Source: Mytilus trossulus (Eukaryota). Taken from it: a DNA stretch of 64,000 nt. Of the stretch, positions 4,081 to 29,582 are shown in pieces (within the stretch, counting starts at the first letter, position 1; every line of letters starts with the position of its first letter). Both the position numbers and the translations under genes were made by a program. The notes under the pieces were generated by a model, which saw only the letters and a program-made list of their open reading frames with translations, was not told the origin of the DNA and searched no databases. The stretch is taken from assembly GCF_036588685.1 (NCBI RefSeq), contig NC_086382.1, forward strand, positions 54,808,001 to 54,872,000, given 5' to 3'.

Positions 4081-5380
4081 ATCGTCTATTCAGTGCCCGC
4101 ATAAGGTGTCTCTCCAAATGGGGCTGCACACAATCCTGGATTTATTTTGGTAGATCATATTTCAGAAAAGCGTTACCGATTTCGATTTTTTTTGTTCGAT
4201 AGAAACAATTAAATATTGGTGTGCTGAATGATAATCTATCAAAATAAGGGGGAAATTGCCTCAAATAGTTTAAGGTTGATGTACCCTTCTTTAGCCATTT
4301 TTGTACAAATTTTTCAAACCTCAATTGTTTCAAAACTACATATATAATGAATAATAGAGATAGGCCATTTAGTACATATTCCAAGGGGAAACTTGATGCA
4401 CAGCATTATTTTTTTACTGTTTCATTGCATTTGATAGGAAAAGAGGACTTTGTGGCAAAGAAATCAAGATTTTTGTAGAAAATCCACAGCCTTTAATACA
4501 GAGATTTTTGTTATAAAATTTGAAACATAAATTACTCACTTTGATGTGCTAGTGTTTATTTTTTACACAAAGTTGTAAGCAACCTGTTAATTCTAAAACA
4601 CTTCGTGCTGATTCACTAAAGTCGAGCGCACCCTAAAAGGTGTACTTGATTTTGGCTATATTTATATTTGTTTTAACCAATAAATACATTTATAAACTTG
4701 TTTTAAGGAAATCAATGCTAGCACTGCATGCAATATTCCTATATCTATCAGTCTTCAAATTGCCAAATATGAGAGTACAAGGATAAAGACTGTGGATTTT
4801 CTATAAAAATCTTGATTTATTTGCCACAAAGTTATCTTTTTCTATTAAATGCAATGGCACAGTAAAAAATAATGCTTTGCATCAAGTTTCCCCTTGGAAT
4901 ATGTACAAAATGGCCTATCTCTGTTATACATTATATCTGTAGTTTTGATACAATTGAAGTTTGAAAAGTTCGTACAAAAAATGGGTACAGAAGGGTACAC
5001 AAACCTTAATTATACTTCCAGAATAGTGTCGCAGGCTTTTTGAGAAAATATTATTTGTTCTTTTTTGTTACAAGAAATTCATACATGTAGTGTGCCAAAA
5101 CATAAGTGTTCAGTTGCACAAACACATTACACAGAGCAGCATGATATTTGTAACACATTCATCATTATACTAGCCCGACATCCAACCCTTTGATTTAACC
5201 GGTATAAACGTTCTTGATGGAGGTACTAATCAGAAAGATCACACAATTCTCTGTTTCCGCTTTGATATTACTTCAATCATTAGTGAGTAAAATGAAACTG
5301 GCTATGATGTAATTAGAATAGGAAGTTGTCGGAAAGAGAGATGGCGAATAACCGGAAGCTTGAGTCAAATCTGTATATAA
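4081..5380 (+). pseudogene. Decayed intronless reading frame of unknown family, split by the Kolobok-like element
   Basis: Removing 4274-5009 rejoins one frame of ~188 codons with 6 internal stops (..GVSPNGAAHNPGFILVDHISEKRY..GEIASNSLIILPE*..PDIQPFDLTGINVLDGGTNQKDHTILCFRFDITSII..). Confidence 0.4.
4274..5005. mobile_element. Kolobok-like non-autonomous element (MITE) with ~225-bp TIRs and TTAA TSD
   Basis: TTAA|GGTTGATGTACCCTTCT ... AGAAGGGTACACAAACC|TTAA; 4274-4497 is the reverse complement of about 4785-5005. TTAA TSD with RR..YY ends is the Kolobok pattern. Confidence 0.85.
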
Positions 5381-5908
5381 AACTGCTTGTTGCGTGACAT
5401 GTTTCTATATTTGTGCTAGTTGAACGTATTGATTATACCCAACCCAGGATGTAACAATAGAGTTGTTAATAAGGTTTTGCCTTAAACGCTCTTTATAGTT
5501 TTTAAACAATTAAAAAGCGTCAGTAACTATTAATATACGTTACATAAACTCGTTTAATATCATACATTTCTTTAATAGATTTAGGTTTATCAACGATTTC
5601 TCCTTATTTTATCGATTTTTTTAATCTGTAATCAATCAATTATATTTTTTTTTATATATTATGCATAAACATGTCATTTAGAAAAGTTAAATGCAAATAA
5701 TATATTAATATATGCCAACTTTGGCTTAAATCTCAAGAACGCTTATATTCCGAAACAGAGGACTAAAAAAGAAATCATTTTTGCGTTACTGTGGTAGTTG
5801 TACAACGAGTTTTGTTTGCGTTCTACAATAAACTTACATTTGAGGGAAATGACGAGTATAGTAACCATTTACGTGTATACGACACGGGTTTTTTTTTAAA
5901 AGAAAAGG

Positions 5909-6728
5909 TATGACGCGGAATTAGGGTCATAAACATTGAATTTAGCATATGCTTAAATGATTTTAGCATAAGCTATATTATAATTTAGCATATGCTAAAA
6001 TGATTTTAGCATAAGCTAAATTCATTTAAGCTAAACTCATTTTAGCATAAGCTGAATTCATTTTTGCATAAGCTAAAATCATTTTAGCATATGCTGAATT
6101 GTTTAGGTTATACATAAATCTTGGCGCGGAATTAAGGTCATAAATACTAATATTCAGCTTATGCTTAAATGATTTTAGCTTATGCTAAAATGAATTCAGC
6201 TTATGCTTAATTAATTGTTTTATCCAATCAAAATCTCGCTTTCTTAACTACTTTTATACTTTTCTCTGGTAAAAAGGAATAACCACTTTTCTCAAATAAA
6301 TAAATGTTTTTCTTAATGTAACTACATATATAAATAGGGAGACTGTGGCCCTCTGCCATCCCGCTAAATCCGTCTCTGTTACCAATTAAGCCGATTTTGT
6401 ATGAGAATTTAAGTCTCGCATGTTGGGAAATTTATTTCAAATTCATGACACGTGTTTTTTGTTTAAACAATATTCTATGTGTAATTGTGTATACATTGTA
6501 TTCGATCTTTTAACCCTTAACGGTGCTATAAATATACAATGTGTACATTTTTTACCGATTGCATAAATGAAAATTCCACTACTGTGTGGGGTTAAAAGGT
6601 CGAATACAATGTATACATTAAAATAGATGACAAGTTGAGATTGGAACAAATGATGGGTTTTTTTAATCTTGTACAATGATTTAGCACTATCAGAAATACA
6701 GGTCAATTTTTATTTGAAGCACAATTCC
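5909..6728 (+). repeat. Left arm of element A, with 21-bp palindromic subrepeats
   Basis: Tandem TTAGCATAAGCTAAAATCATT-like units; terminal motif repeated internally at about 6123 (GGCGCGGAATTAAGGTCATAAA). Confidence 0.9.
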
Positions 6729-6916
6729 TTTTGCAGTTTTCGAGTACTTCTGTTTTTGATCGTTCTTAACTTTTGCCAAAATATAACTGATACCTGAATC
6801 TAACGGTTAGAGATGTGCCTGTGAGGCCAAGTAAATTTTCAGCTCAATTGCATTTTTAGTTTTAGATCGAGTTATGCTGTTTTCAATTAAGGCATTCCCA
6901 ATTATTTAGCGATATA

Positions 6917-7084
6917 CAGGGGCGGATGCAGGAATTTTCGAAAAGGGGGGGGGGGTGCTAACCCAGGGCAAAAAGGGGGGGGGGGGGGTTGCAAAACATA
7001 TGTCCCGATACAAATGCATTGATCGGCAAAAATAAAAGGGGGGGTGCGCACCCCCGGACCCCCCCCCCTCTGGATCCGCCACTG
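6917..7084. mobile_element. GC-rich MITE with CAGGGGCGGAT(G/C)CAG TIRs
   Basis: CAGGGGCGGATGCAG ... CTGGATCCGCCACTG; poly-G/poly-C tracts; related copy at 21667-21830. Confidence 0.75.
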
Positions 7085-7416
7085 ATATAGGGGGGTTGGG
7101 GGGAAGGGGGGGCTTGTCAATTCGAGATAAATTCAATTCGAATTAAATGTACATTAGACAGTGACTGAAAACCAAATGCCAAATATGATATGGTGAGCTT
7201 CCCGGCATTTTTATGACTTTCATCTAGAATATTGAAATGTTAGCAATTATAGGCAACCATACGGCCTTGAATAATGACAAAAACCAACACCGAATGGTCG
7301 GCTATATTTTTTTTTTACAAAACATCAAAATTAAGTCGACAGACATGAACTATCGACAACCACAGGCTATGCATATTGTATGTGCCTGTCCCAAGTTATG
7401 AGCCTATACAATATGC

Positions 7417-7689
7417 ATGCAAATAGAGCGGTCAACCCATCCTTGTTCAAGGTGCTTTGAAATACCCAAGATATATGTGTATGACACAGAAATGTTTTAC
7501 TTCAATAAAATGTAGGATTAATCACTTACAAGTGTCATATTTAAGGGTGTATTTTTTCACGACCTATGTGATGTACCACGATTTGGTGGTATGACACATG
7601 AAGAAGACATTATTGTTAATAAAATGAATGTGACTTTATTCATTTGTAATAATGGTTATTTCAAGCATTTCTGTCAAGTTTTGTCATAA
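7417..7689 (+). pseudogene. Decayed Cys-containing reading frame inside element A
   Basis: MQIERSTHPCSRCFEIPKIYVYDTEMFYFNKM*D*SLTSVIFKGVFFHDLCDVPRFGGMTHEEDIIVNKMNVTLFICNNGYFKHFCQVLS*: 2 internal stops in 91 codons; coding-like sequence continues to about 7960 with frameshifts. Confidence 0.4.
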
Positions 7690-8242
7690 TCAGTTCAATA
7701 GTAGTTTGAAAAAAATCTAGTATAATGAAAGACGACATCTACAAATTCCAAACCAAGACGCATCAAGATAGATTATAGTGTGGACAAATAAAGGATCAAA
7801 ATTAATATTTATCACATCTGCCTACAAACAGTTGAATATGATACACAAGAAAATTTTAGAAAGATATATACCACTAATGAACCTTTTTTGTCTCGTTTAT
7901 CATTTTGGTCAACTTATTACTCTAATTTTCTCAAAATTTCAACTTTTCAGGCCAATGAATAAAAATGATGGGATAACTTTTATTCATTTATGATAGAATT
8001 ATTATATGAAATGAGAAGTTGAAGTAATTTAGCAGAATGAACAAAACAATATAAAAGTTCACTGTCTCCAAGTAGGTTTCAATAAGTCCTTACGTAAATA
8101 TTGAATTTACGCCGCGTTCCACAGAGGGACATTAAAGGGTTCTCTTTCAGTGAATAATTTGTTGTTACAACATTAAGAATAATTTCATTTACTTATAACT
8201 TTATATTCATTTAAGTATTTTCTATGAAAATGTTCTATGTTC

Positions 8243-8712
8243 GAGGGTATCACCAGCCCAGTAGCCAGTACCGAAAGGAAAATACGGATTGTTTGTGTTA
8301 TTAAAATTTGCTGTAACAAAATGATAGAAATTATTATAAATTAAGGAATGTATCTCCCTCAAGCAAAGCTCTGATTCCTTTCACGGATTTGGCTATACAT
8401 TTTGGACCTTTTGGATTATAGATCTTCATCTTTTATATAAGCCGTTTGAATGGTTTTACACTAGTAATTTTGGGGCCCTTTAAAGCTTGTTGTTCGGTGT
8501 GAGCCAAGGCTCCGTGTTGAAGGCCGTACTTTAACCTATAATGGTTTACTTTTTAAATTGTTATTTGGATGGAGAGTTGTCTCATTGGCACTCACACCAC
8601 ATCTTCCTATATCTATTTGGATTTCAAATATTTTAGCCACGAGCATCACTGAAGAGAAATGTATTGTCGAAATGCGCATCTGGTGCAGGAAATTGGTACT
8701 GTTAATGTTATT
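8243..8712 (+). mobile_element. Retrozyme-like monomer (second family), interrupted by a common interspersed repeat at about 8443-8615
   Basis: Shares GAGGGTATCACCAGCC.AGTAG with the 26.5-27.3 kb units and ends in a hammerhead motif followed by GGTAC. Confidence 0.6.
8643..8686 (+). ncRNA. Type I hammerhead ribozyme motif (one stem II mismatch)
   Basis: Stem I GCATCA/TGGTGC, core CTGAAGA and GAAA, stem II GAAA/TGTC with an A.G mismatch, palindromic stem III ATGCGCAT, AUC cleavage triplet. Confidence 0.75.
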
Positions 8713-9424
8713 TAAAAATTCTACCATAGTAGAAAATGAAAAATAAGGAGAAACAGCCCATCCCCCATAAAAAACAAAACAAAACAAAAAACGGTTACAC
8801 GCCATTAGTCCGACAACCCATTAGTCCGACAACCCAATAGTTTGATTGAACCTTTCTATTGTTTAGAATATTCACAAGATGATCACATTGATAAACGTTT
8901 AGGAGACTTGATTTCCTTATTTTTTTCATAAAATGACACCCTTTAACATTTAAGAAATATTTAGTCACATGTTAGGATTTTCATGTTGTCACTTGTTCAC
9001 GTATTATGTGCTATTGTAGACTAGTTATGTTTTATAACATTTTTTATTGCGCTGAACCCTTCCACCGAAACCGAACTGAATAAAAAAGCTGCAATGCTAA
9101 GGTATCATTTGTGATTTCAATTGCAACCAATTTTAACAAGAGTAAAACATCCTATATGCAAAAACAGTATTTGATTTTTATCCATAGCTTAGATAGTAAA
9201 AATGTTATCATAAAATGATATATGCCTCAGGGAACAGTTAGTATCTCAGGGACTGCTAATGTGCTTTCATCCTTGCAACCATTCAATAATAGTACAAACG
9301 TATGACATTCATGGAACCTATTTTTTACGAGAAATTTAATGTTTTAAATTGAACTAAAGATTTTACAAATTTTATGTTTTCATCAGAGTATTATTTGTTA
9401 CATCAATAGATATAAACAATTCAC

Positions 9425-10197
9425 CAAAGTTTCATGGACACATTAACGGTTCTCGAGAGGTAGAGCGGACACAATTTGTTAAGAACAGCAAACGGATGGA
9501 TTGGCCGACGGACGGACCTTTGACACACACTCTGGTGTCATGTACAAACCGACAGACAGACGGTCAAGTATAAAGTATGAAATATTAACGGTTCTCGAGA
9601 GGTAGAGCGGACAAAATTTGTTAAGAACAACGAACGGATGGACAGACCGACGGACTGCCCTTTGACCTAGGATGCATACATTATGACACATTCTCTGGTG
9701 TTGGTTAATATATATGTTAAGTTAAAAATGTTTGTCAGGTATAAAGTATGAAATAATAACAGCTGTCCTCTCAAAATATAGTGTGGATCAAATTTGTTAG
9801 CGATGGAAAGACCAACAGACAGACGGACCTTTGACCTAGGAAGTTGTACATACATCATGACTCACCCTCTGATGTTGGTTAAAATGGATGTCAAGTATAA
9901 ACTTGGAAATCATAACGGTTCTCAAGATATAGAGCGGGCACGATCTTATCCACAGGACACAGGGTTGTCAACTGAAACCAAAGTTTGTTTTACCTTGACC
10001 TTTGACCTAGAAAGTTGTACATACATCATGACACGCCCTCTGGTGGTGGTTAATAAACATGTAAAGTATAAAGTATGAAATCATAATGGTTCTCTAGATA
10101 TGGAGCGGACACAAGGTTAAAGTGTTACGGACGGACGGACGGACGGACGGACGGACGGATCACTATAGGGCGATCCGCCTAAAGGCGGGGCCCTAAT
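9425..10197 (+). mobile_element. HINE/pearl-like element: diverged core repeats, (GGAC)n microsatellite, 3' hairpin
   Basis: Recurrent ATAAAGTATGAAA..AACGGTTCTC..GAGCGGACA units, (ACGG)n at 10127-10159, hairpin GGGCGATCCGCC-TAAA-GGCGGGGCCC. Confidence 0.75.
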
Positions 10198-10591
10198 TAT
10201 CTTTATAACACCGCAAGCCTCATTCACAATCGAAGCCAAAACAAAATAGAAAAAAACGACTAGCACATTGATATCAAATGACAGTCAGTATCAAACCATG
10301 TACTACATAATTCAAAAGAACTTACAATATAATCATCTTTTTTTCCCCAATATAAGAGCCTATTTATAAATAACATAGCTGAATAATGATTCAAAGTCTG
10401 TATAAGCTCAAGATAATTTAAAGTTAAAGGTACGAACCATTTGAATTAAGGAGGCAGTCTTAGATATTTGAGGGAAAACAAATGACTCTGATTTTTGTCT
10501 TCAACAAGTTCTGGCTGAACTAGATTAAAAACAATAATCTTGCCCACTTTTTTGCTATTAAAACAGAATTTTCCAACAGAATTATTCAGCA

Positions 10592-11056
10592 TTAAATGAA
10601 CATGATTTTTTTTGTGGCCGTGGTTTGCATGTCTGACAGGAATGTCTGTTTCGTCGAACTAATATGTTGAATACTTTTTTCAAGACCAGACTGCAACCTG
10701 TCTGCTGAGTGTGGCCGTATTGTCTCCATTTGTCGAACGTCATTCATAAATTCGTTGCCATAAAACTCATACGTTGCCTTTTGGTTGCTTTGGAACACCT
10801 CACTTCCCTTGATTGTGTTGAGTGTAACAAATCAATCAAACATTGGGGTAAAAATTGCTTGATTGTCTTTTTTTAACTCTTGTCGGTCTTATTGTAAATT
10901 CCATTGAATAGCTAGGTGTATAATATCTTGTTTACAACAAGAAATCTGTGAGGTTATGATAACGTAACTATATTTGTAACCGGCGAGAATTTTCCTTGTC
11001 TATTTTTTACTGACAAGTCCCACATCAAATTTATCAGTACATAGCTTTGAATCCAT
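10592..11056 (-). pseudogene. Decayed intronless ORF inside element A, unknown family
   Basis: ATG at 11056 to stop at 10592 in one frame, 154 codons with 3 internal stops: MDSKLCTDKFDVGLVSKK*TRKILAGYKYSYVIITSQISCCKQDIIHLAIQWNLQ*DRQELKKDNQAIFTPMFD*FVTLNTIKGSEVFQSNQKATYEFYGNEF... Confidence 0.55.
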
Positions 11057-13206
11057 ACTATCATTTTATAAAAGACAAATAATAGGGAGAATACATGATC
11101 GAAAATGTCCAACCCTTACGATTTACAGCAACTACAAAATGAACATGCTCCGTGTAGAGATTTGTCTCAATCATACCACATCTTTTTATTTTAGCATTTA
11201 AAGAAATTCCTAGTCCTCGTTTGCTGAGTGATCAAAAAGTTTATTTGCATGCAGAAATTTAATTTCTAGGATTACCATAATCAGTTATCTACGTGGCGAT
11301 GGTCGTTACTTCTCTTTGTACACCGGCTTATTTATAATCGATTTTTTTGTTGTTGCTTATTATGAAAAAAAAACATACTTGATGCACATAAGGAATTATC
11401 ATTTCACTATCTCACTTTTGTTAATGATTGAACAAAAAAGTCATAATCTAAATTGTTTATGTATTTCATAGCTAGTGCCCCTTTAAGCAATTATATTTTT
11501 AGTACATTAATTTGGTGCATGGGATGAAATCATGATAGGACCATGAAAAGATTTATCTCACCTTGACAATATGTTTATTGGTCATTGAATTATCAATTAA
11601 ATGTAGTACTTGTAGAAATAAACTCAATTTTATAAATACTGAAACAAAGAAAACATTTCAGTCTTTGTATGATAATTATCTATACAATGTAGATAAAAAA
11701 AGAAGATGTGATATGATTGCCAATGAGACAAGTTGACAACTCTCCAGAACAGATCAAATGACATAGAAGTTAACAACTATCAGTCATCATATGGCCTTCA
11801 ACTATGATCAAAGCCAATACCGCATAGTCAGCTATAAAAGGCCCCAACATGACAAATGCAAAATAATTCAATAATTCAAATGAGGAAACTAATGGCCAAA
11901 ATTATTTACAAAAGAAAAAAAACGGAAAACATATTAACAAACGAAAACCACTGCAAGGCCATAACTACCATTGAGGCAAGTAAGGCGCCTTACTAAAATT
12001 TCGACACTGATTTTTTTTATATACATATATAAATAAAATAGTCATTTGTTGTTCTGTCTCAACCTCAATTCTTCCTGGTTATAACTCAGCATCTATTTTT
12101 CAGATGTCATTGTATCATAAATTACCTTAAGTTGTGGAAATCGATTTAATAATGTTTACCCTCTACGTTATTTTTAACCCAAAACGCAGTAATGTCGCAA
12201 GTAATGTAGGAAGGAAAAAATGGGACGGAATTACATGTATACGGTTTACCATAAAAATAAACAAAATTTCAGTTAGATGTACAGAACTTTTATCATAGGA
12301 TGTTTTTGGAAAGAAAGTATGTTTCCAGTTTTTGACGAAAAAAATACTTTGTTATTATGGAAAGCCAACGGGGTCAAAATTCTTACTTCGTAACTTGTCA
12401 ATTTGTTACTTGTAACTATGTGATTTGTCAATTTGTATATTGCTGTTTTGTAACTTGTCGATTTGTTAAATGTCGATTTGTATATTGTCTGTTTGTATAT
12501 TAATGTTTTGTAACTTGTCGATTCGTGAATTGTCAATTTTTTATAAATATTGATGTTTTGTAACTTGTCGATTTGTTAATTATATAAATGTCGATTTGTA
12601 TATTGTCTATTTGTATATTAATGTTTTGTAACTTGTCGATTCGTAAATTGTCAATTTGTATATTGATGTTTTGTAACTTGTCGATTCGTTAAATGTCAAT
12701 GCGTGATTTGTCAATGTGTGAAATGTCATCGTTGTATTATGCTAACGATATTTATGACGACAGATGGCGCTCAGTTTCTTCTTCGTTTTATAAGCCTCCT
12801 GTAAGTAAAAGCACCTCCATATGGAATATATATACCTAAGTAATTTTAATCAATCAATTACAGCAAATGCGTCTAAAAGAAAGCAAAATAAAAATTGCAT
12901 GTTTACAGGACCCCAGTTTTATTTTATTTACTGACGTGGACTTTCGTTCGAGAACGGAAACTATAAAAATACACCCGACTAGCCAAGTCCCTCCTTTTAT
13001 ATTTATTTTTATATTCTTTTATCTTTTTATTATTTACGTAATCATAAAGTGTTTTTTTTATTCATTTATCTATTCAAACTTTTGCTCTTTAAAATTTCTA
13101 TCTAACTTTATTTATCATTCTAAATTATGTCAATTACCACATGGTAAAAATATAAATTATGTAATGCCCAAAAAGGCGCAAGCCAGGGCCGACCGTGCAA
13201 GGGTTG

Positions 13207-14642
13207 TATAGCCAGTCAAGGTCGTTAAAAACTTCCATTTTTTGTCAAGTCCGTCGACGTAATCGATCTCTCCTACTAGACCTTTTCAACATCTCTCGAC
13301 ATCTACAGTTGAGAACGACTACGACAGGTAAAATGTGAAGGGTCGTCTCAAAATTAAAAAAATAAATCAGATCATTATTGATTTTAATGCTTACATTGAC
13401 AATGACAAAACTTTCTTATAGGTTGACAAGGGCGTCACATGTCTGTTAATTTTTCGCCTTAGATGCCTCTATAATGTACTCAATACTTTGTATCATTTCA
13501 ATTCACTTATTTGGTGTTTCACTTGAATTCTGTATTCACCAATCACTGCTAAAATGTTGTTACATTGAAACGAGTGGTCAATTATATTTTTTTTCACAAT
13601 TTATCAAGGAAAAACTTCAACTCGAGCAAGATATCTTGAAGCAGAGAAGACCGTCGTTTATAAAAAAAAACTAAAAAAAACCTGAAGTGATATTATCCTT
13701 CAACTTAAAAAGTCAATATGTAAGTATCCCTCTAGAAATTGAATATGTACATCAACTAAGGTGAAGATCGGTGGAAAAACACCAAGTTGGTCGTGTTCAC
13801 AAGAGTGTGATACGGACGGAGGGTCCATTATTCTTTTTCATAAATTTTGAAAAAAGTCACAAAAGCTTTTACGCCAACAAATTAAATCGTTATTGGCATG
13901 CGGTAAATATTTGGCGAAAGACTCACATTATCACAAAAGTGAAGAGAAAATGGGAAAGGATTCAGAATGATTGAAATAGTTTTTTAATCAATTCAACATG
14001 AAATGTCGTGCATATAAATACGAAATAAGAATATATGACAGAGACATATGTATGGTGGACGGTTGGGACGTTTCCCCTTTTCGTGTTTTCGGGGTAATCC
14101 ATAAATCAAGAAATTGAGAAATCAGGAAATCTAGAAATCAAGAAATTGGAAAATCGAGAAATAGAGAAAGCAAAAACGCGAAATCGAGAATAGATTTCAC
14201 GTTTTCGTGTTATCTCTTTGGTGTTTTGGCGTTTTTGCTTTCTTGCTTTCTCGATTTCTCTATTTCCCGATCTTATCTATTTCCCAATTTCCCCGGCCCA
14301 CTTCTCAATATATCTCGATTTCTCGAATTCTAATTTCGCGTTTGCAAAGTGAAAGGAGAAGTCACGAAAACGCGAAATAAATGGCCACATTCGGCCACTG
14401 TACATACATTTATTTATTTACTTGGTTGATATATATTCTTAAGCTATATAGTCAAAACAGTATAAAACGGCCAATACAATATGTTACGTAATGATAATCA
14501 TGTTTTTTTGTCTTTGAGACGAGCCATCCATTTTACCTGTAAACTGTAGGTGTCATTAGTCGATGTCGAGAGATGTTGAAAAGGTCTAATTGTGAGGTAA
14601 TTGAAATAGTCGTTGGTCCGTGGAATATAACGACTGGATTAT
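13207..14642. mobile_element. Diverged inverted-repeat pair (element C), nested in B
   Basis: TAGACCTTTTCAACATCTCTCGACATC (about 13277) versus GATGTCGAGAGATGTTGAAAAGGTCTA (about 14562); ACAGGTAAAATG versus CATTTTACCTGT; ends CCAGTC/GACTGG; no clear TSD. Confidence 0.6.
14051..14402. mobile_element. MITE with IS3EU-type ends (element D), nested in C
   Basis: CATATG|TATGGTGG ... CCACTGTA|CATACA; ~9-bp GAAATCGAG-like units in the left half, reverse complements in the right half. Confidence 0.7.
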
Positions 14643-15502
14643 TCAGGTAAATACAATAAGGAGATGTGGTAATAAACCGTATAATTGACAATGAGACAAC
14701 TATCCACCAAAGCGAAGTTCAAATAAAGTCGATGTAAGCAAGTATAGGCAACCTACGGCCTTCAACAATGAAAAAACATAATACCAAATAGTCGGCTATA
14801 AAAGGCTACATCATTACTGGAAAACCCGGGTTCTAGTAATAAACGTATATATTAATCCTAAAATGCTACTGATTATCGGTTCATTTAATTCTGACAGGAG
14901 GGGAAAGGGCTGACATATATATATTGATACACATGCCTACTGAATTTTTTCTGGTCAAGAATCTTAAAAATTGCCGCTACCAGATTCCCGTTCTATGAAA
15001 ATTTACAACCAAAAAGATAAAAATATTCACGAGTCCCTCGATCGCAACAGTTGCTTATTAACGCCTAGTATTCAAGATATGATCCCCACCCGGTGACACA
15101 CCTCCTTATAGCCCGGCAACCTTACCAAATCTTATATTTTGTCTATCGGATCGTTAATTAACCGAAATGATTTACGATGTTAATCAATAAAGCTAAAAGA
15201 TTTTGAATGTGCATGTCATGTAAAATAAAAAAAATCATTTGCAATGAATTCGTAACAATATAATCCTAACTCAATTGACAAACCATGCTGTATTCCGCCT
15301 GGCTCTTCTGTTCAGCAGTCAACCATGATCCCAGGTCGGATTGTTGTCTCTTTGACACATTCCCCATTTCCATTGTCAATTTTAAATAGGTGACGCGTGT
15401 AGAAAAAAATAAACAGTTTCATAGTTTTACGATCATGGTCATTAACAAACTATCCAGAGGAAAAACCTCCTAATATTTTTCGATCTAGTACCATGATCAT
15501 TC

Positions 15503-15945
15503 AAGATTTGTACCTGTATCTGTAGGAAAACGTTGTGGATAAAAAAAAACGGCTTTAATACAACGATAGACAGAGCGCCGTCGATGTATTGACGATGCAC
15601 GAGAGCAGTTTCTGAACGACTGTCAACTATCGCGGTTTGTGCACTACAGTTTCTTCAAGGTGGTTCCACTCGAATACTGTTTTTACGAAAAATAAGTTGG
15701 AAATATTATGGTATTTTGCTCGTTGAGATCTCAAAACACTTTTTGAAGTTCTTGATATGCAATTTTTTCAATACGTTTCTTGACTGATAATTGTTCAATC
15801 GGGCACTTGGCAGCAATTGATTGTCCTTTTTTGGACGAGCTTTTTTTTTATTTTCTGGCTCTATAGCACTGAAAAACTTTCTTATCAGGAATCCTAGTGT
15901 TAATTTTGACTCTTTGACTACGTTGCATTTTTGGAAATATTTTCT
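15503..15945 (-). mobile_element. Degenerate 3' fragment of a CR1-group LINE ORF2 plus tail
   Basis: Minus strand encodes ..NVVKESKLTLGFLIRK.. and ..NLFFVKTVFEWNHLEETVV.., matching the CR1-type KKANxxLGFLxRN and SFFPxTxxxWNxL motifs; CAGATA-like tail. Confidence 0.7.
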
Positions 15946-17633
15946 GACCTACAAGGAACAGGTCCGTATAGAGACATTAACCAGAGGTCTGTGTTACAAA
16001 CTATATCACAAACGTTTACTTTTAATGTCTGAGTAAATTTGATTCGCATTTACTGGATTGTGTCAGGATGTATTCTGCAATATTGAGAGATAGTTAGTGT
16101 TTGAACTGAAAACTCGTATCCAAGGCTTGTAAAATATCAAGTGGTTTTAGATTTTAAATATTTTATTTGCGTGTTTTATATGGAATAATTGCTTACCAAA
16201 TGAACAGTAAAACGTTTTTAAGATTTTAAAGATAACAAGGAAAGTGTTTGAACAGTAAATGCTATTGCGAGGGCAGGAGTGTTTTAATTATAGACTATTT
16301 AACCCTATGTTATATGGAGATATAATAGTGATCCGGCTATGAACGATTGGACTGTGTAATATATATAGTTAACTCGAGAGTTAACCATGTTAACTACGTT
16401 TACATGGTGATGGATTAGTCCGCATGCTGTATATATGTTACTGTTATAAATTATAATAACTACGCATACTGATTTTATGAGTGCCCCGTGTGTAAGGGTT
16501 AGGGTGCAAATAAGGGTGCAAATTTGAATTACGCTATAGAAGCGAAGCTCCTGCTAGAGGAGGAAGATAAAGACTAGGTTACAGGTAACAGGTAGTCCAA
16601 TTTAGGTCCTCGTTTAGTTTTCTGGTTCCTTTAGATTTTATTACAAAATAGTGCATATTCAATACAGTTTTAATAAATAGTATACATTAATCAAGTAACT
16701 CATTTGAAAAGAAAACCATTCAGTTTGTCTTTGCAAAGTTCAAATATGATATTATAAACTGTGACATCTGTTATCTTCATTACTCAGGAGCCAAATAAAT
16801 AAAGATTGTTCGTCTATTTGCTTCTTGTATTAAAACATCATTAGAGAATTGCATTCTTTTCTGAAATTTTTATATTGAGATTATAATATTAAGGAATAAT
16901 GAGTGTCAAACCATTTCTCCCATTCATGATACATTTGGTTCCAAATTTGATACCCAGGACACTATTAGTAAAAATTTTCCAGCACCGTCTTATATTTCAT
17001 GTATTTAGTCTTATTTTGACCCGGTTAAATATTAAGTATAAATTTCCTGCCAAGTGACAGTAATATATTTGCGAAGTTGATAAGGAAGCCCGTTCGAGGA
17101 CAGCGACACATCTATGATATCCCATCCCAGGTTTGGTGACCAGTACAGTAAACTATAAATAAAAGCGGGACCCTGATATACATGCTATATAAAACAAACA
17201 ATGTATTTATCTATTTGTTTTCTTTTTTATAAATGTGCTTTACATAATTGATTTAAATTACATTGGTATATATTCCATATGCCGGTGCTCCTACTTACAG
17301 GAGGCTTATACACCGTAGAAGAAACCGAGCGCCATCTGTCGTCATAATGATCGTTAGCATAATACAACGATGACATTTCACACATTGACATTTCACACAT
17401 TGACATTTAACGAATCGACAAGTTACAAAACATCAACATACAAATTGACAATTAACGAATCGACAAGTTACAAAACATCAATATACAAATAGACAATATA
17501 CAAATCGACATTTAACAAATCGACAAGTTACAAAAGTTGAAAACAGCAATATACAAATTGACAAATCACACAGTTACAAGTTACAAATTGACAAGTTACG
17601 AAGTAAGAATTTTGACCCCGTTGGCTTTCCATA

Positions 17634-17846
17634 TGTTTTTGACCCTGAGAAAAAAAAATGTTTGTTTCACCCTCAGCTGTCACTATATGTAATGCTAAAA
17701 TTGAAAGAAAAAAATGGTTTTCGACTTGTCGCCAAAAAAATATATTGTCTTTCGCCGAAGGCGAAAAAAAAGTTTGTCCAGAAAAACAACTCCATAGCCC
17801 ATAACCCCCCCCCCCCCCCCCAAGAAAATCAAATGGTTGCCGCCTT
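17634..17846. mobile_element. Half of a MITE ending GAAAATCAAATGGTTGCCGCCT, apparently the target of element B
   Basis: Same TIR and internal TTCGACTTGTCGCCAAAAAA motif as 23823-24022 (opposite orientation). Confidence 0.7.
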
Positions 17847-17919
17847 TTATCTGACATTCTGTGCAAGTAAATCAAAAAATGTTTATCCTTGATTAATTTG
17901 AATAGAATTTTATTTTCGT

Positions 17920-18440
17920 GACACATGATTTGTCGAAGTACACCTCTTCAATTACTTGAACCTTGGCTTGCGAATTATTTTGGGAATACTTTGTTATCTG
18001 AAGTATCTTGCTTTAAATTGTTTAACTTCTGATATACATTTTGAAATATAGTAATCTGCTACTGGATATTCCGTAAAAACCGCTAATATAATCACGGGTT
18101 TTATTTATTCAATGAAACGGTTTTCGTGGGTGTTTGGGATTAGTCTTTCAATTACCTCCATTTCAGGCACAAATTTATATTGACGAAAAGTTCCGGCTTC
18201 GCAAGTACAGGAATTACTTTACATATGACAGTTATAACATGTATAGCAGGACAAATCTCGAAGTAAAACAATACGTGGACTTGTATTAAGTCTTTTAATA
18301 TTGGTGAATGCACCTTACTGAAGTGACGACTTTAAATGATCTATTTCGGAGTACTTCGGCAACATAAATTAAAATTCGCACTTTACATTTAAAGGACTGT
18401 CTTGGTGTCTCCAATTTGTCTTTTCAAAAGTTGAACGTTA
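17920..18440 (-). pseudogene. Decayed Cys-rich reading frame inside element A
   Basis: One frame, ~175 codons, about 6 stops: ..FMLPKYSEIDHLKSSLQ*GAFTNIKRLNTSPRIVLLRDLSCYTCYNCHM*SNSCTCEAGTFRQYKFVPEMEVIERLIP.. Confidence 0.4.
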
Positions 18441-18909
18441 TGCATGTAATGAGGTTTTTTTCCCATTTCACCATTCTTTTAAATAAATTGTTAAAAGCTA
18501 TAGACGATTAATGAAAATTGCAAAATTTAACCTGTTTCGAATCTCTGTCCCTGACCGGAGTCTATAGCAACATGCACTATTCTTGTAACGTTGGGCATCC
18601 TTTTTTTTCCCGCATAGCTTTGTTATTTTAATCCTCAAATATATACTAAATGTTACTTAGTATATGATCAAGACATATAAAACATAACTAAAAACATATA
18701 TTTGATTTGTTTAAATACTGGTTCGTGTTTAACACTGTGCGGGACAAATTTGCCATTCCGGTATCGGCAAATCTGACTTTGTCGGTTTACAAGATATCAA
18801 AAAAAAATATTTGCCCAGTGATAGATTATTGAAAATTTAAAAAAAAAAAGCCATATGATCCAACTTTTCACTGTTGTCACTCTTGTCACTGCAGCTGATT
18901 AAAAGTACA

Positions 18910-19300
18910 TTTCCCATGGGAAATTTGAAAATTCCCATGGGAATATTAGAATTTCCCTTGGGAACATTGAAAGTTCCCATGGGAAAATTTACTTTTCCCA
19001 TGGGAAGTTTAGAGTTCCCATAGGAACTTTAAAGTTCCCATGGGAACATAAGTAAATTGTTTGTTCCCATGGGAATTTCAAAATTTCCCAAGGGAAACTT
19101 TAAATTTCCCAAGGGAATTTTTCTTCCCAAGGGCACTCCTTTTCTTCCCATGGGAAAAACTTTTCCCATGGGAACAATATTTGTTCCCATAGGAACAATA
19201 ATTCTTCTCATGAGAACAATACTTCTTCCCATGGTAACAATAATTGTTCCCGTGGGAACAATATGTTTTCCCATGGGAACAATGATTGTTCACATGGGAA
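18910..19300. repeat. ~21-bp-period array of the palindrome TTCCCATGGGAA
   Basis: Roughly 18 phased copies; accounts for the three overlapping ORFs at 19029-19461. Confidence 0.9.
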
Positions 19301-19499
19301 GTGATATAACTAAAAAGAAAACATAAAAAAATCCTCTCATTGCATGAGTGAAGCAATTTCACAAAGCGGACTAAGTTATTATGGGTATAAATATTTCTCT
19401 GTATTTTAATTGTAGATATATATAATTTTTGTCTTGGCATGCTCAATTGAAAGTAAATCACTATGTGTCATAGTGCAAATCGAGTTTCAAAAAATTAAC

Positions 19500-19672
19500 T
19501 ACTATTAATTCAGAAATTATTGCTGTTTTTATTATTGTGAAAATAGTGACAGGGTTATAATCACAATAATATACACTTGCATATTGAAATTTTTATGACC
19601 TCAACAGGATTATTCTAAATTTTGCACACAAAAAAATGATGAAAGCTAGCAATAATTTCTGAATTTTCAGTA
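19500..19672. mobile_element. Short TA-flanked MITE (Tc1/mariner-like)
   Basis: TACTATTAATTCAGAAATTATTGC ... GCAATAATTTCTGAATTTTCAGTA. Confidence 0.65.
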
Positions 19673-20189
19673 TATAGTTTTGCATATATAGCTTTCATAC
19701 AATGTCTTATGTTTATCCATTTGAATGATTTTGTGTTTTTTTCATGCAGACATTTAAATGTTGATAGGTCTTGCTCATTGTTGACGGCTGTTCAGTCACT
19801 GGCTGAAAATACCGTTATCTCTGGTTTTTAGTTGTCTCATTGGCAATCACATACCATATCCTTACTTAATTTCAACACTTCTTAATTTAAGTTATGTGCA
19901 TTTGAGAATATCATTTTCAAAAAGACAAAACATTACATTTTGTATTACAAATAAGGCACTTGTGTTTTAATATTTCACCTTTCACTGAGATAACACCATC
20001 AAGTAAAATGTATGAAACAGATATTTTGCAGAAGAATCATTAAAATGAAAATAAAATCTGCAGATGACATAAATGAAGTTTACGATGATTATTAGAAAAT
20101 TAAGACACGTCAGTTCAAACTCTTAAAGCCTATTTTCAGATAATAAATATTAACCCCCCCCCCCTAACTTAACCCAAACGTTGCATAAG

Positions 20190-20700
20190 ATTCAAACGTA
20201 CTTAACAGACTTTTAAAAATTAGGGGTAGGCATGCTAAATGTATATACTCTTTAGACCAAAACTCGGACCTTTGGTGAAAACTAACCATCAGTTGATCCA
20301 CCTGGGACTTTTGGCCCATAAGACCTTTGAATATTACCTATAAAATGCACCTAGTAGGTAAATGGGTATTGACGAAAGGACATTTTGACACTCTTTAAAA
20401 AATCTGGGGTAGCCATGTTAGACCGTTTAGACTGGACCTTTTGAAGACAAACCATAACATATCTATTTTGGAGCTATGGTGAAGACAAACCCTAAAATGT
20501 AAAATGTCCATCCTTAGCCTTAAGGTCCATTGCACCCTAGACCATTACCTATCATTTGTACCTAGTGGTTAAACATGATTAACCGAAAGGAACTTTTGTC
20601 AGATTTTTTAAAATTAGGGGTAGGCATGTTAGACCCTGCAAACATAATTAAGTTTGGACCTACCAGGAGTTGTACCACCTGGACCTTTTGGACTATTGGA
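20190..20700 (+). repeat. Diverged ~190-210-bp tandem repeat (about 3 units)
   Basis: TTTAAAA(A)TTAGGGGTAGGCATGTTAGACC-like motif at about 20211, 20394 and 20604. Confidence 0.6.
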
Positions 20701-20745
20701 ACAGTGCTTTGGTTTTTTTATATTTGGTGTAAGTAAACAAAAAGT

Positions 20746-21253
20746 AACAAGAATATGTCCACAGTACACGGATGCCCCACTCGCACTATCATTTTCTATG
20801 TTTAATGGACCGTGAAATTGGAATAAATTCTCTATTTTGGCATTAAAATTAGAATGATCCTATCAAAGGAAACATGTATACTAAGTTTCAAGTTGATTGG
20901 ACTTCTACTTTATCAAAAACTACCTTGACTAAAAACTTTAACCTGAAATTTGCACTATCATTTTCTATGTTCAATGAACTATATAATTGGGGTCAAAACT
21001 CTAATTTGGCATTTAAATTAGAAAGATCATATCATAGAACACATGTATACTAAGTTTCAAGTTGATTGGACTTCAACTTCATCAATACATACCTTGACCA
21101 AAAACTTTAACCTGAAGCGGGACAGACGGACGAACGAACGGACGGACGGACGAACAGACGGACGGACGAACGAACAGACGGACGGACGAACAGACGGACA
21201 GACGCACAGACCAGAAAACATAATGCCCCTCTACTATCGTAGGTGGGGCATAA
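20746..21253 (+). mobile_element. pearl/HINE-like element, near full length
   Basis: AACAAGAAT start, subterminal ATGCCCC/GGGGCAT inverted repeats, two ~170-bp core repeats, GGAC/GAAC microsatellite 21120-21210, 3' hairpin. Confidence 0.85.
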
Positions 21254-21666
21254 ACAAATTCAATTGGTAGGAAGAAATCGCTGTAACTATACAATAATTT
21301 GTCAATTTTTTGTCTTGTATTTAATATGTGGATGATGGTGAACCTTAAAGAAACTCTGTTAGTCCTAAATTTTATTTTTATTGCAAATTTCCGATGGTCA
21401 AAAACCTTTGGATCACAACTTTTCAAAAACCTGAATTGTAGAATACAAATGACGTTAAGCACGATATTGCGTATCATATGGTAACGTCAAAGTTTTACGT
21501 TTTACGGCGATTACCGATTATTTGTGATAAGTTTTGTATTTCGCTTGCAATTTTTGTTTTGCTTTTCAATACGTATACTACTTATAATGTTTTGTTGTAC
21601 CGAATATGCATAGAATATTTCCCAATGATAGTAAAGTAAGCAACAAACAAAAAAATGTATCATATT

Positions 21667-21830
21667 CAGGGGCGGATCCAGCCATCTTAAAAAGGGGGTC
21701 CCAACCCAGGACAAAAGGGGAGGGGGGTTCTAACTATATTTCCCCATTCAAATGCATTGATCGGCAAAAAAAGGGGGGTTCCAACCCCCGTACCCCCCCC
21801 CCCCCCCCCCCGTCCACGGATCCATCAATG
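21667..21830. mobile_element. GC-rich MITE related to 6917-7084
   Basis: CAGGGGCGGATCCAG start, shared AAATGCATTGATCGGCAAAAA core, degenerate right TIR. Confidence 0.7.
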
Positions 21831-22450
21831 GCATTTGGGTAATGCATAGGTATATAAAATGAGAAGATATATATGGTAGGATGAGTGCCAAGAAAATTCT
21901 ATCTGAGGAACTATATACAGATGATCCACCATAAATAGCGTACCCCGAATCGACAACGTTGAAATTTTACGAACTTGCAAGACATTTCATTCCTTAAAAA
22001 ACGAAGTCGTTTCGACTACGCAAGTTATCAAAACGTATGTAGCTGTTTTGTAAAGTTAAAACACAATTATGGAAAAGCAATATTTAGCATGCAACTAATC
22101 TAAATTTTCAATAAATAACGTCGCAAATGACAATTTATTTGTAAAAAACGGCGAAATCCGACATTAAACATTTTGCAAGACATTTGACAAAGGCCGTTGC
22201 AATTTTATATGTAGTGTGAGTGCTGCAAAAATTCAATTTTGATATTGTCTATGTATGTACTTATATGTAAGCCGAATTTACACAAACAAAATATCATATA
22301 ATCTAATATTTCAAAACCTATAAATTTTGAAAACTTTTAACATCTTTTAAAATCTGACCAATATGAACACTTTTTGATTTTGCCAAAAAAACGCGTTGGT
22401 CATATCAGAAACACATATCCAGTAATATTATTATACTTTATATAGAGAAT

Positions 22451-22581
22451 AATACTTGGCAAAATTCGTATCATATGTCGTATCATCCCGAGACATCACT
22501 ATCAGCCCAAGGGCCTTTAGGCCCGAGGGATGATATTGGTCGAGGGTGATACGGCATGTGATACGGATTTTGCCATGTATT
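22451..22581. repeat. 130-bp imperfect palindrome (long hairpin)
   Basis: AATACTTGGCAAAATTCGTATCATATGTCGTATCATCC ... GGGCCT-TT-AGGCCC ... GGGTGATACGGCATGTGATACGGATTTTGCCATGTATT. Confidence 0.85.
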
Positions 22582-23822
22582 ATACGCTTTATCATATATT
22601 TCAACAGAAGGGTATTATATTATATGAACTGTTTTCTGATCCATAGCACTAAGTTACCTTCAGTTCTGCTTTTCTCTTGTTTCAAAGCCATAAAATAACT
22701 GCTCAATTATTTATACGAAGCACCTAGGTTACTTCACAATTTGCGTGCTGTTGTTTTAAAAAAAAAAATGTTTATTTTTGTATTTTTTATAGTTGCATTT
22801 AGTGTGCCAAAAAATATGATAGCTTTTGTTCGTGACGTCACATACAATATAAAAACTTGACGTTCGTGACGTTACATACCAAACAATGACGTCATTCAAA
22901 AAATTGACCTTTTTTGAGGAAATTTTTTCTTAAGCAAAAAAAAAACCAAAAAACTGACTTCATGTAAAAAAAAAAAAAAAAAAAAAGGTATGCGATACGG
23001 GTTTAGCTATGCGATACAGGGTAGGTGATACAGACTGGAAAAAACGAACCTTTATTAGATATACAAAATAGCTGTATTTTGTACTAAATATAATATGATA
23101 AATATATATATAAAGCATATCATTCATTCGAATTTTCGTGGATATAACACTATTTTGAAGAACACAAACACCTCTGCTAAAGTGATTGTGCGTATAGTCT
23201 GTTTCGTCTGACACGCATATTGTTGACGTTTTGTCAATATGTTGTCCTTATTTTAGACTAAAGTAAAATATGATTAAACAATTTGTTCTTTTTTTCAGAA
23301 TAGTATTTATCTGCCTAGTCTATGGATATAAGTTTTAAATAACTTAACTGTTATGATTTTATAGAAAAGCTGTTTATTAGTGTGGACTGGTTGTTTGCAC
23401 GGTATAGGTCCTTGATACATCGAAAATTGACGCACCCGCAGGCGTCCTTCAGACTGTTTATGACTAAATATGTTGATATGTAGTGATTGATACTTGAGTC
23501 TTAGAAGAACAAGGTTTATGTCAGTCTTAGTGCAATGATTTGGACAAACTTTCAGTTATTGTACATGTTCTCATTTTGGTGCTTTGTGTTTATAGCTATT
23601 GTCTAGATATAATGTTAGTGTTTCTTAGTGGTTTCGTACCAGTCTTTTAAGTTTATCTGTTTTCAATTGATTTTACAGTTTGTTCTTAATAAGTTGGCCA
23701 TTCACTCAGTTAAACAACGGGATCCACAGTTTTTCGTGAATGGCCGAAAAGGTCGAATTTACTATAATATCATGCACCGCTTGCTTGGATGCATTTATTC
23801 TTCCCGAGTGATTTTGCATCTA

Positions 23823-24022
23823 AGGCAGCAACCATTTGATTTTCGGGGATGGGCGATGGATTTTTTCCCCGGGCTAAGGTTGGTTTTTTTAGAAAAGAAC
23901 AATCTATTTTTTTGGCGACAAGTCGAAAGCAAATTGGTCACTTACCCCCCCCCCCCCCCCCCCTTAAACACACACACAAATAACCCACCCACCACCCCTC
24001 AGAAAATCAAATGATTGCTGTC
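23823..24022. mobile_element. MITE with AGGCAGCAACCATTTGATTTTC TIRs
   Basis: AGGCAGCAACCATTTGATTTTC ... GAAAATCAAATGATTGCTGTCT. Confidence 0.75.
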
Positions 24023-24060
24023 TGATTTCAATTTCTTGGGTCACTATGAAAACTACTAAT

Positions 24061-24992
24061 GGAATTGTGCTGCATATAAAAATTGACCTGTATTTCTGAT
24101 AGTGCTAAATCATTGTACAAGATTAAAAAACATCATTTGTTCCAATCTCAACTTGTCATCTATTTTGATAAATATACATTGTATTCGACCCTTTAACCAC
24201 ACACAGTAATGACATTTTCATTTATGCAATCGGTAAAAAATGTACATGTACACATTGTATATCTATAGCACCGTTAAGGGTTAAAAGATCGAGTACAATG
24301 TATACACAAATACACATAGAATTTCATTTAATCAACAAACACGTGTCAAGAATTTGAAATTTTGCAACATGCGAGACCTAAATATTTATACAAAATCGGC
24401 TTAATTTGTAACAGAGACGGATTTAGCGGGATGGCAACGGGCCACAGTCTCCCTATTTATATATGTATTTACATTAAGAAAAACATTTATTTATTTGAGA
24501 AAAGTGGTTATTCCTTTTTACCAGAGAAAAGTATAAAAGTAGTTAAGAAAGCGAGATTTTGATTGGATAAAATAATTAATTAAGCATAAGCTGAATTCAT
24601 TTTAGCATAAGCTAAAATCGTTGTAGCATAAGCTTAATTCATTTAAGCATAATCTATATTCATTTTAACATAAGCTAAAATCATTTTAGCAAAAGCTTAA
24701 ATCGTTTTAGCATAAGCTAAATTCATTCAAGCATAAGCTGAATTTTAATATTTATGACCTTGATTCCGCGCCGAGGTTTATGTATAAGCTAAACAATTCA
24801 GCATATGCTAAAATGATTTTAGCTTATGCAAAAATGAATTTAGCTTTTGCTAAAATGAATTTAGCTTAAGCTAAAATGAATTAAGCTTATGCTCAAATCA
24901 TTTTAGCATATGCTAAATTATAATATAGCTTATGCTAAAATCATTTAAGCATATGCTAAATTCGATGTTTATGACCCTAATTCCGCGTCATA
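24061..24992 (-). repeat. Right arm of element A
   Basis: Reverse complement of 5909-6728, with extra 21-bp units at about 24600-24745. Confidence 0.9.
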
Positions 24993-26498
24993 AAAAGGTA
25001 CAAAAATAGCAAATAAGTTGAAATATAAATAAAAACGTTAGGTTGATAATCGTTAATAACAAAAATGTCTTACTGGTCATGGAACATTGTTTTCGTCATT
25101 TGCTTTTCGACAAGAATTCCCCCTATTGTAGAAATTGAATTACCTGCAATAATTTTGAAAACACCTTTTTTATAATTTCTTCGTGCTTATGCAGGAAAGA
25201 GGAAAAATGTATGGCATTACCTGTAAAAAGAGTACATTCAAAGTGTATAGTACCAATGTTATTTCAACTGATTGGGCGGAGTTTATAAAAAGTAAAATCA
25301 CATAAAATACTGAACTTAGAGGAAAATCAATTCGGAAAGTTCATAATCACATGGCAAAATCAAATAACAAAACGCATCAAAAACGAATGGACAAGGTATA
25401 CGACTGTCATATGTCAGGAACCTAGAGTGGTTGTATGTTTTCAAATTTAAATGTTTTTGTAATGTCATCTGAAAACTGTGATGTTGCAGACCGTTTTTTG
25501 TCATTGTTTGTTAAATTCAATCAAATTTTTTGACTCGAACAATTCAAAAATTAGCAAATGCTAAAGACACCTAACAATTGCTTGAAACCATACATGATCG
25601 TTGCCATCTAACAGAACTTATTGAAATATTGATCTTAAATTCAATGCTCGTATACCAAAGATTTTATTTCATATTCATATTAGGATACGTAATATAGCGG
25701 TATGTTCTTGTTATTGACGTTGGCTCAAATGTCGCTATAACCATTCTCAAATGATTACGTAAGGTGACTTATTAATCTCTGTGTTCCCTGTTAAGAGTTT
25801 TCTCACTGGTTGCTATATCACATCTTCTTTTTTTATATCATGAAACATTATCTATAATCAGTTTCACAAAAACTCGTATGACTTAAAAAATCAGTTTACT
25901 GTGTTCAACTTATTGCTTTTGGGCACTGATAATATAAAACTAAACTTTTACTGCTCAAACTGAAACATTTGTCTTTTTACTAAATCTTCGCCGCATGGTC
26001 TTTTCTAATTATAGTTCGTTTTAGTGTTAAATGTTTTGGAAATCATTAGTTACTATGAAGAGTAGTAATCAGTGTTCAATAATAATATGCTCTCTGAACA
26101 TCTTTTTTATTTTCTGTTTCAATACTTTTGTATTGCTCCCGATAAAATCCAAGACACCACCTTTTTTCTTGATTTATATGTTAGATGTTTTTTTCTATAG
26201 TTGAATGATCGTGTTTTCTAACGGTTGTAAAGCTATTTTTGTCTCTTGAGATACCATATTGTCTCACAACTACAACTCATCATTGTTTCTGTCAATTTCT
26301 ATCACAAAATCTAACTGCATATTCTAACTTTTGTTTTGAAATTGGTCTGGCATCATTTAATCTTTTTGATAATGTTATAAATAGACTTTAATTCTACATT
26401 TGCCTGTAATATCTCTATGCAGATTTGATCAATTTTCCTCATAGATATTTTAACACCTCATTTTTTACAATTGAGTGATGTTTCATCGGCACTCATAC

Positions 26499-27315
26499 AT
26501 TGTACTTGATTGGCTTTATCAATATGTTGATATGAGCGTCTTATGTAGACGAAACGCGCGTTTGACGTTCTAAATTATAAATCTGGTACCTTTGACAGCT
26601 ATTTACACAACTGGGTCGATGCCACTGCTGGTGGATGTTTCGTTCCCGAGGGTATCACCAGCCTAGTAGGCAACATTCCGGTGTTAACATGAATATCAAT
26701 AATGTGGTCATTTTTATAAATTTCCTGTTTACAAAAAGCATATATTTTTCAAAAACTAAGGATTTTCTTATCCCAGGCATAGATTACCTTAGCCGTATTA
26801 GGCACAATTTGTTGGAATTTTGAATCCTCAATGCTATTCAACTTTGTACTTGTTCGGCTTTATAAATATTTTGATATGAGCGTCACTGATGAATCTTATG
26901 TAGAAGAAACGCGCATCTGGCGTACTAAATTATAATCCTGGTACCTTTGATAACTATTTACACCACTGGGTTGATGCCACTGCTGGTGGACGTTACGTCC
27001 CCGAGGGTATCACCAGCCGAGTAGTCAACATTCCGGTGTTGACATGAATATCAATAATGTGGTCATTTTTATAAATTTCTGGTTTACAAAAACCTATCTT
27101 TTTCGAAAAACTAAGGATTTTCTTACCCCAGGCATAGATTACCTTAGCCGTATTTGGCACAACTTTTTTGGAATTTTGCATCTTCGATGCTCTTCAACCT
27201 TGTACCTGTTTGGCTTTATAAATATTTTGATATGAGCGTCCTTGATGAGTCTTATGTAGACGAAACGCGCGTTTGGCGTACTAAATTAAACTCCTTGTAC
27301 ATTTGATGACTAATT
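26499..27315 (+). mobile_element. Tandem non-LTR retrozyme array: ~2.3 units of 344-356 bp with three damaged type I hammerheads
   Basis: Unit landmark GGCTTTAT.AATAT.TTGATATGAGCGTC at 26512, 26856 and 27212, each followed by a hammerhead remnant ending GAAACGCGC. Confidence 0.85.
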
Positions 27316-29304: not shown

Positions 29305-29520
29305 AGTTTTCCGAAATACTAAGGATTTTCTCATTCCAGGCACAGACTACCGTAGCCCTATTTGAAACAATTGTTTGAATTTGGGATCCCTAATGCTCAT
29401 CAACTTTGTACTTGTTTTGCTCTATAAATATTTTGATATGAGTTTCACTAATGAGTCTTATGTAGACAAAACGCACGTCTGGGGTATTGAATTATAAGCC
29501 TGGCACCTTTGATTACTATT
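29305..29520 (+). mobile_element. Partial diverged retrozyme monomer with degenerate hammerhead
   Basis: ACTAAGGATTTTCT..CCAGGCACAGACTACC ... CACTAATGAGTCTTATGTAGACAAAACGCACGTCTGGGGT. Confidence 0.75.
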
Positions 29521-29582
29521 GTCAAAAACTACCAATGTTTGCCCAAAGATGTAGAGCTGGTTTCATTTACTGATATTTTTCA

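Follow-up and report, generated by a model that had tools for sequence, protein, structure and literature searches.

A long transposase-free transposon family with IS3EU-like ends in the genome of Mytilus trossulus

The transposons known as IS3EU and GingerRoot form one lineage (PMC10045372). Complete IS3EU families always have TA..TA ends, and their target-site duplications are usually 6 bp long (PMC10045372). The structure of IS3EU elements is described as largely unexplored in PMC11934779, whose reference list includes the Repbase name IS3EU-1N1_DR, non-autonomous in style, and one fungal IS3EU consensus has 9,258 bases (PMC12730594 supplement). A bivalve survey (PMC10294476) contains no occurrence of IS3EU, and a review in which elements longer than 20 kb are giant (PMC6431247) does not mention it. 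Here we describe a 19-kb element at positions 5909-24992 of a 64,000-nucleotide window of Mytilus trossulus (assembly GCF_036588685.1, contig NC_086382.1, positions 54,808,001 to 54,872,000), with approximately 32% guanine-cytosine content in a 1.3-Gb genome. With a probability of about 0.8, the element is a non-autonomous terminal-inverted-repeat transposon of the IS3EU/GingerRoot lineage, moved in trans by an IS3EU integrase-like DDE transposase, and with an interior that has grown by the addition of repeats. Literature on IS3EU, GingerRoot, giant bivalve transposons, Polinton in Mytilus, and hAT6 gave us no description of the family, for which a Repbase entry may exist.

The element begins with TATGAC and finishes with GTCATA, and its limits are these.

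5903..5908, left target-site duplication AAAAGG
5909..6741, plus strand, left terminal inverted repeat, 833 bp, with 21-bp palindromic subrepeats at 5935-6216
24048..24992, minus strand, right terminal inverted repeat, 945 bp
24993..24998, right target-site duplication AAAAGG

The two arms are 94.6% identical over 826 aligned columns, with 126 gap columns that are chiefly additional 21-bp subrepeats of the right arm. The first 23 bp at each end form a small palindrome, TATGAC-N11-GTCATA, which is followed by the 21-bp palindromic subrepeats, and near 6120 the left arm repeats the terminal motif in degenerate form. Given the base composition of the window, an exact 6-mer match is expected by chance with a frequency of 5e-4 per site. 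A preliminary description, made from the sequence alone, had reported inverted arms 17 kb apart, TATGAC..GTCATA ends and AAAAGG on both sides, all of which we recover. The TA..TA termini, the 6-bp duplication and the terminal inverted repeats are features of IS3EU/GingerRoot. The motif TAYGG..CCRTA, described for fungal families and not stated to hold for the whole superfamily, is absent from the outer element (TATGA..TCATA) and present in a second element nested within it (TATGG..CCATA).

The exact end pattern occurs in at least 54 places of the genome (0 in the control), and a looser one in 74 (4 in the control). A genome search with the inner arm gives 53 matches from 40 of 56 candidates, many of them inverted pairs 5-19 kb apart. 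We collected 22 paired copies including the one in the window, which is the longest in a range from 123 bp to 19 kb. Fourteen are longer than 8 kb (one of these is inflated by a local tandem duplication), one has 5.2 kb, and seven are mini copies of 123-435 bp. An exact 6-bp duplication flanks 18 of the 22, and 12 of the 14 long ones, all with different sequences. Since the duplicated hexamer differs in every copy, we reject the alternative in which the target duplication is just TA. The arm search proposed in the preliminary description finds other copies with a common interior, and the IS3EU-type ends with 6-bp duplications that it saw at one locus extend to the family. Contigs of four public runs, whose labels name three organisms and a marine metagenome, include the identical end joined to other flanks, breaking at 5908-5909, so the family is not confined to the Mytilus trossulus assembly. 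In a separate search of metagenome and viral contigs, the end pattern has no match.

Some individual copies need comment. In the copy at C12:25049432-25064625, the right part and its flank are tandemly duplicated, which results in two right ends with an identical flank. The 5.2-kb copy, which has long frames, is a mini copy that contains a retroelement, which from its motifs we take to be Penelope-type. A solo 807-bp arm at C4:23983288-23984094 (L030) lies inside an unrelated IS3EU element, beside a decayed gene matching the Pfam profile rva_4. We considered this element as an autonomous partner of the family and rejected it; two other copies of the gene cross the site unbroken, so the arm was inserted into an element to which it is unrelated.

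Copies on other chromosomes include the interior in the same order as in the window, with deletions. At least seven chromosomes have this interior enclosed by the arms of the family, and the flanking duplications differ. Taking 16 other copies and solo arms together, 69% of the interior in the window has a match in one or more of them. Relative to the window copy, the identities of left arm, right arm and interior are 98.1, 98.5 and 97.2% for a copy on C5; 97.7, 98.3 and 97.3% for one on C12; 93.1, 93.4 and 92.0% for one on C3; 89.4, 89.3 and 87.9% for an older C12 copy; and 88.6, 87.4 and 84.7% for one on C1. By subfamily, five siblings are about 97-98% identical to the window copy, a C3/C7 pair 92-93%, an older C12/C7/C30 group 87-90%, and the C1 copy 85-89%. 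Because arms and interior diverge in step on different chromosomes, we conclude that a backbone of approximately 13.5 kb moved as a unit. The preliminary description proposed that the whole 19 kb had moved; this is right for the backbone and unproven for the full length, as 5.6 kb are private to the window copy (6917-7083, 8443-8616 and 12356-17633), and the demonstrated mobile unit is therefore about 13.5 kb. The private 5.6 kb may have been added only once the outer element had made its last jump. In a tree of the arms, the three younger subfamilies are clades within each of which left and right arms separate, and the two oldest copies are unresolved; this is the pattern given by bursts from a few master copies. 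Siblings have the same differences between left and right arms, so the 5% arm divergence was inherited and gives no age for the insertion.

For the enzyme that moves the family, we searched the genome with the rva_4 profile, and found at least 156 matches with 150 of 343 candidates scored. The matching proteins, compared by eye, have the motifs printed for IS3EU transposases from oyster and zebrafish (PMC10045372 supplement). Three complete autonomous IS3EU copies of 12,410, 17,614 and 18,623 bp combine TAYGG ends with long arms and exact duplications of 6 bp, and a fourth of 19,792 bp is without duplication. Like the outer element, the autonomous IS3EU elements of this genome have long arms with internal repeats. 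The family is likely to be moved by IS3EU transposases of other elements. The assignment to IS3EU is based on the ends, the duplication length, the build and the active-looking relatives in the genome, and no partner element stands behind it. The superfamily guess of the preliminary description is probably correct.

The interior is a stack of older repeats that this copy has inherited. Intervals set by hand assign 11,863 of 17,306 interior bases (69%) to repeats, in agreement with the preliminary statement that other transposable elements lie inside. They include the following.

7451..8238, old dispersed repeat, 77-83% identical to many other loci, also in sibling copies
8242..8715, plus strand, terminal repeat that we take to be Penelope-type, with a hammerhead motif at 8643-8686, split by a young 174-bp repeat at 8443-8616
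9442..10190, repeat with subrepeats and a GACG microsatellite, presumably Helentron/DINE-like, also in sibling copies
10357..11151, dispersed repeat, 75-85% identical to many loci; an older C7 copy has the site without the repeat
17848..18730, dispersed repeat, 79-86% identical to many loci
18900..19303, array of a 21-bp palindromic unit
20171..20745, oldest shared core, 66-76% identical to a 344-bp tandem repeat that forms arrays elsewhere
20746..21254, insert, presumably Helentron/DINE-like, present in two young siblings; the site lacks it in the C3 and C7 copies
22439..23104, miniature inverted-repeat transposable element (MITE) of 666 bp, 80-91% identical to many loci; the C3 and C7 copies are without it, and two siblings have it in reverse orientation

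The inserts at 10357, 20746 and 22439 are present in the young subfamily and absent in older copies, from which we conclude that the interior grew stepwise and that the inserts were amplified along with it. A ribozyme had been reported in the interior. A minimal hammerhead motif can be seen by eye at 8643-8686 and in 4 of 13 other copies scanned; Rfam has no hit at gathering score in the window (weaker hits are palindromes) and does not call it, and its fold is no better than that of shuffled sequences. What had been described as decayed open reading frames are mostly frames opened by tandem repeats, none of them recognisable, and Pfam finds no match at E 0.01 among the 108 interior frames of at least 48 amino acids. 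In other family copies (150 of 171 frames scanned), one copy has a tyrosine recombinase and a GDSL domain and another has a reverse transcriptase match, which identify nested retroelements there.

Single copies show later deletions and private insertions, and the window copy has, besides the 174-bp repeat at 8443-8616, these two.

6917..7083, G-run MITE-like insert, absent there in all 8 of the other copies with a match to the flanking probe
12356..17633, nested element of 5,278 bp with TATGG..CCATA ends, private to the window copy

The 5.3-kb nested element has arms of about 0.5 kb, the flanks TGTTAT/TGTTTT, and inserts of its own at about 12992-13254, 13269-14590 and 15942-16590. Its site is empty in two sibling copies, with a single TGTTTT. 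Its arrival could precede or follow the most recent jump of the outer element. The nested family has at least 290 ends (with at most one mismatch), a usual length of 2.9-4 kb, and exact 6-bp duplications around 8 of the 10 pairs examined. GGGTCA stands at end positions 16-21 of the outer and the nested family alike (window 5909-5932 and 12356-12379). A third family with TATGAAGGGC..GGGTCATAA ends is represented by a 613-bp pair on C3.

Several results weigh against movement by an IS3EU transposase. None of the eight resolved autonomous families has TATGA ends (seven have TAYGG and one TATAT), so we only infer the mover; the partner search covered the same 150 candidates, and several fetched families have no resolved ends. 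A tblastn search with 11 local integrases, together with a profile built from them, covered the window, 39 family regions and 20 further loci (from the looser end pattern and the solo arms), and it finds no integrase in the window or inside any family copy; the sole match among the 39 regions belongs to an unrelated neighbouring element on C4. This agrees, as do the Pfam scans, with the preliminary statement that no DDE transposase lies inside, and the IS3-like integrase that the same description proposed to look for between the same arms elsewhere is not found in those regions and loci. Nine frames of a second gene, carried by many autonomous IS3EU families of the genome, have no match in the window or the 39 regions. 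As neither integrase nor second-gene remnants were found, descent of the family from an autonomous IS3EU element is not shown. Two of the 22 paired copies have duplications that match at five of six positions, and two have none. Finally, among public runs at the window locus (24 runs, 4 of them examined over 936 bases), one contig spans the filled junction and no empty junction is seen. A diverged contig ends at 5894, and one run, in which 0.89 of the flank words occur, could be the source sample itself.

In the preliminary description the element looked like a Pack-type carrier, that is, one with pieces of host genes captured between the arms. The GingerRoot lineage does so in a clubmoss, in 22 of 77 elements (PMC6839031), and about 31% of the interior here is without repeat assignment. 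Five DNA searches of the genome with the unassigned stretches, in each of which 39-40 candidates were scored, match family copies alone, with no single-copy donor among the scored places; small host fragments may still be present. None of the 108 window frames matches Pfam, and the informative matches in frames of other copies are the retroelement domains of one copy only. The interiors are common to the copies, collinear and made of other repeats, inherited rather than captured copy by copy. With neither an integrase remnant nor a host-gene fragment found, the Pack-type label is unsupported, and we consider it unlikely. Another alternative is that 17 kb of local DNA just happen to lie between two independent small elements, or between the halves of a short MITE that a block of chromosome has split. 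The family does include mini copies of 123-435 bp and one solo arm inside an unrelated element; the recurrence of the same interior and arms on different chromosomes, and the agreement of arm and interior identities by subfamily, refute this reading, which we give next to no credence.

A different enzyme that makes 6-bp duplications (a Polinton/Maverick integrase, Ginger2/TDD or hAT6) could also move the family, with TA ends that are coincidental. The family has the size and long arms that we take to be typical of Polintons, and its fifth end base is A, versus G in the seven resolved autonomous IS3EU ends. Polintons end in AG..CT and Ginger2 in TG..CA, and the ends here are TA..TA. Polinton and Ginger2/TDD are among the 6-bp makers in PMC6839031, and hAT6 is named in PMC12730594; a hAT6 end motif was not found in the literature examined. 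The Pfam scans find no remnant of a polymerase, capsid or other gene, the nested TATGG family has the same GGGTCA and 6-bp duplications, and the autonomous IS3EU elements of the genome have the same build, all of which makes another enzyme distinctly improbable.

For a transposon moved by IS3EU enzymes, the transposase would bind the terminal palindrome and the 21-bp subrepeats, cut at the TA ends, and join with a 6-bp stagger, as expected from DDE integrase-type enzymes. The interior would have been enlarged by collecting other repeats that were later copied together with the element, and a small number of master copies would have raised the copy number in bursts. The interior is presumably functionless, and would be tolerated since the IS3EU enzymes of the genome already move units of 12-19 kb. 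More tentatively, and with more doubt than confidence, the family could represent an IS3EU lineage in animals that has palindromic TATGAC-N11-GTCATA ends of its own and a transposase yet to be found, and whose 8-14 kb of gene-free freight has been amplified in several bursts across mussel species. It would then be a natural large-cargo cut-and-paste system that reshuffles nested repeats, other IS3EU elements included, and possibly adds to mussel presence-absence variation.

The autonomous IS3EU elements include a side finding that is more interesting than the 19-kb element itself, the presence of ubiquitin-ligase genes. Many of these families have a second, multi-exon gene of the HECT ligase type, convergent with the transposase, at the following loci.

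L093:7731-8801, minus strand, second gene
L139:7786-8136, plus strand, second gene
L162:1546-2007, minus strand, second gene
L136:5046-6113, minus strand, second gene
L152:3190-4098, minus strand, second gene

Two second-gene frames match Pfam HECT above cut-off, and one frame of this gene is matched in full by a database protein of 721 amino acids. By tblastn, second-gene frames have opposite-strand matches beside ten integrase types, and in five pairs the gene is within the stretch common to two copies. A literature search found no paper on IS3EU, or on a transposon, with HECT. In the 18.6-kb autonomous element at C9:16194039-16212661, an F-box/LRR frame (L084:2546-3253) lies upstream of the transposase, with 99% identity in a second copy. 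The 17.6-kb element at C3:58507409-58525022 (L079, L080) has 6.3-kb arms with a full transposase frame of 436 amino acids in each, and there are further inverted integrase pairs among the rva_4 matches. An IS3EU family at C2:94640949 onward (L071, L123, L162) has a transposase of 528 amino acids and two copies more than 99% alike over more than 28 kb.

In the flanks of the element within the window, no gene is recognised in the 81 of 105 frames scanned, with one weak match below cut-off. Tandem and dispersed terminal repeats, which we take to be Penelope-type, are at 26492-27322, 29307-29528 and 33667-33849, and hammerhead-like motifs occur near 27236-27279 (Rfam E 2.5) and 33767. Positions 4270-5009, 30969-31383, 53809-54473 and 60638-61050 contain an inverted-repeat element of 740 bp together with tandem arrays of 18, about 130 and 160 bp.

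The family indicates that gene-free units of considerable length are moved in an animal by a superfamily that has received little study. It also indicates that these units are enlarged step by step through nesting, in an order that can be read from the family tree. Automatic repeat annotation would split the element into a dozen unrelated repeats. The enzyme, if found, would be a candidate for natural large-cargo transposition. Host-gene capture is not demonstrated by the element.

Compared with IS3EU/GingerRoot, the family is alike in TA..TA ends, 6-bp duplication and terminal inverted repeats, and differs in having no transposase gene. It has TATGA ends, whereas those of fungal IS3EU (PMC12730594), and of the seven autonomous families of this genome, are TAYGG. 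The GingerRoot elements of Selaginella lepidophylla measure 3.9-12.9 kb with arms of 100-150 bp, and only 6 of the 22 with host-gene fragments have a DDE motif (PMC6839031). The two groups have in common the lineage, the 6-bp duplication, mostly TA ends, many copies without a DDE region, and lengths of several kb; the family in the window differs in its 0.8-1-kb arms with subrepeats, its length of up to 19 kb, and a content that, in the tests made, is nothing but other repeats. Styx of Zymoseptoria, with which it shares the 6-bp duplication and the relation to IS3EU, is shorter (7.9 kb), coding and fungal, and Styx copies with a dead integrase have reportedly moved in trans (PMC10853768). Pack-MULEs, mostly 1-2 kb long, are alike in placing non-autonomous, trans-moved arms around foreign DNA, and differ in their Mutator ends and host-gene cargo (PMC6431247). 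The preliminary description called the element giant and undescribed, which is not supported in view of autonomous IS3EU elements of 12.4, 17.6 and 18.6 kb in the same genome and published GingerRoot elements that carry genes and have no transposase (PMC6839031). Transposons of this kind are known, and the 19-kb element is a large one among them.

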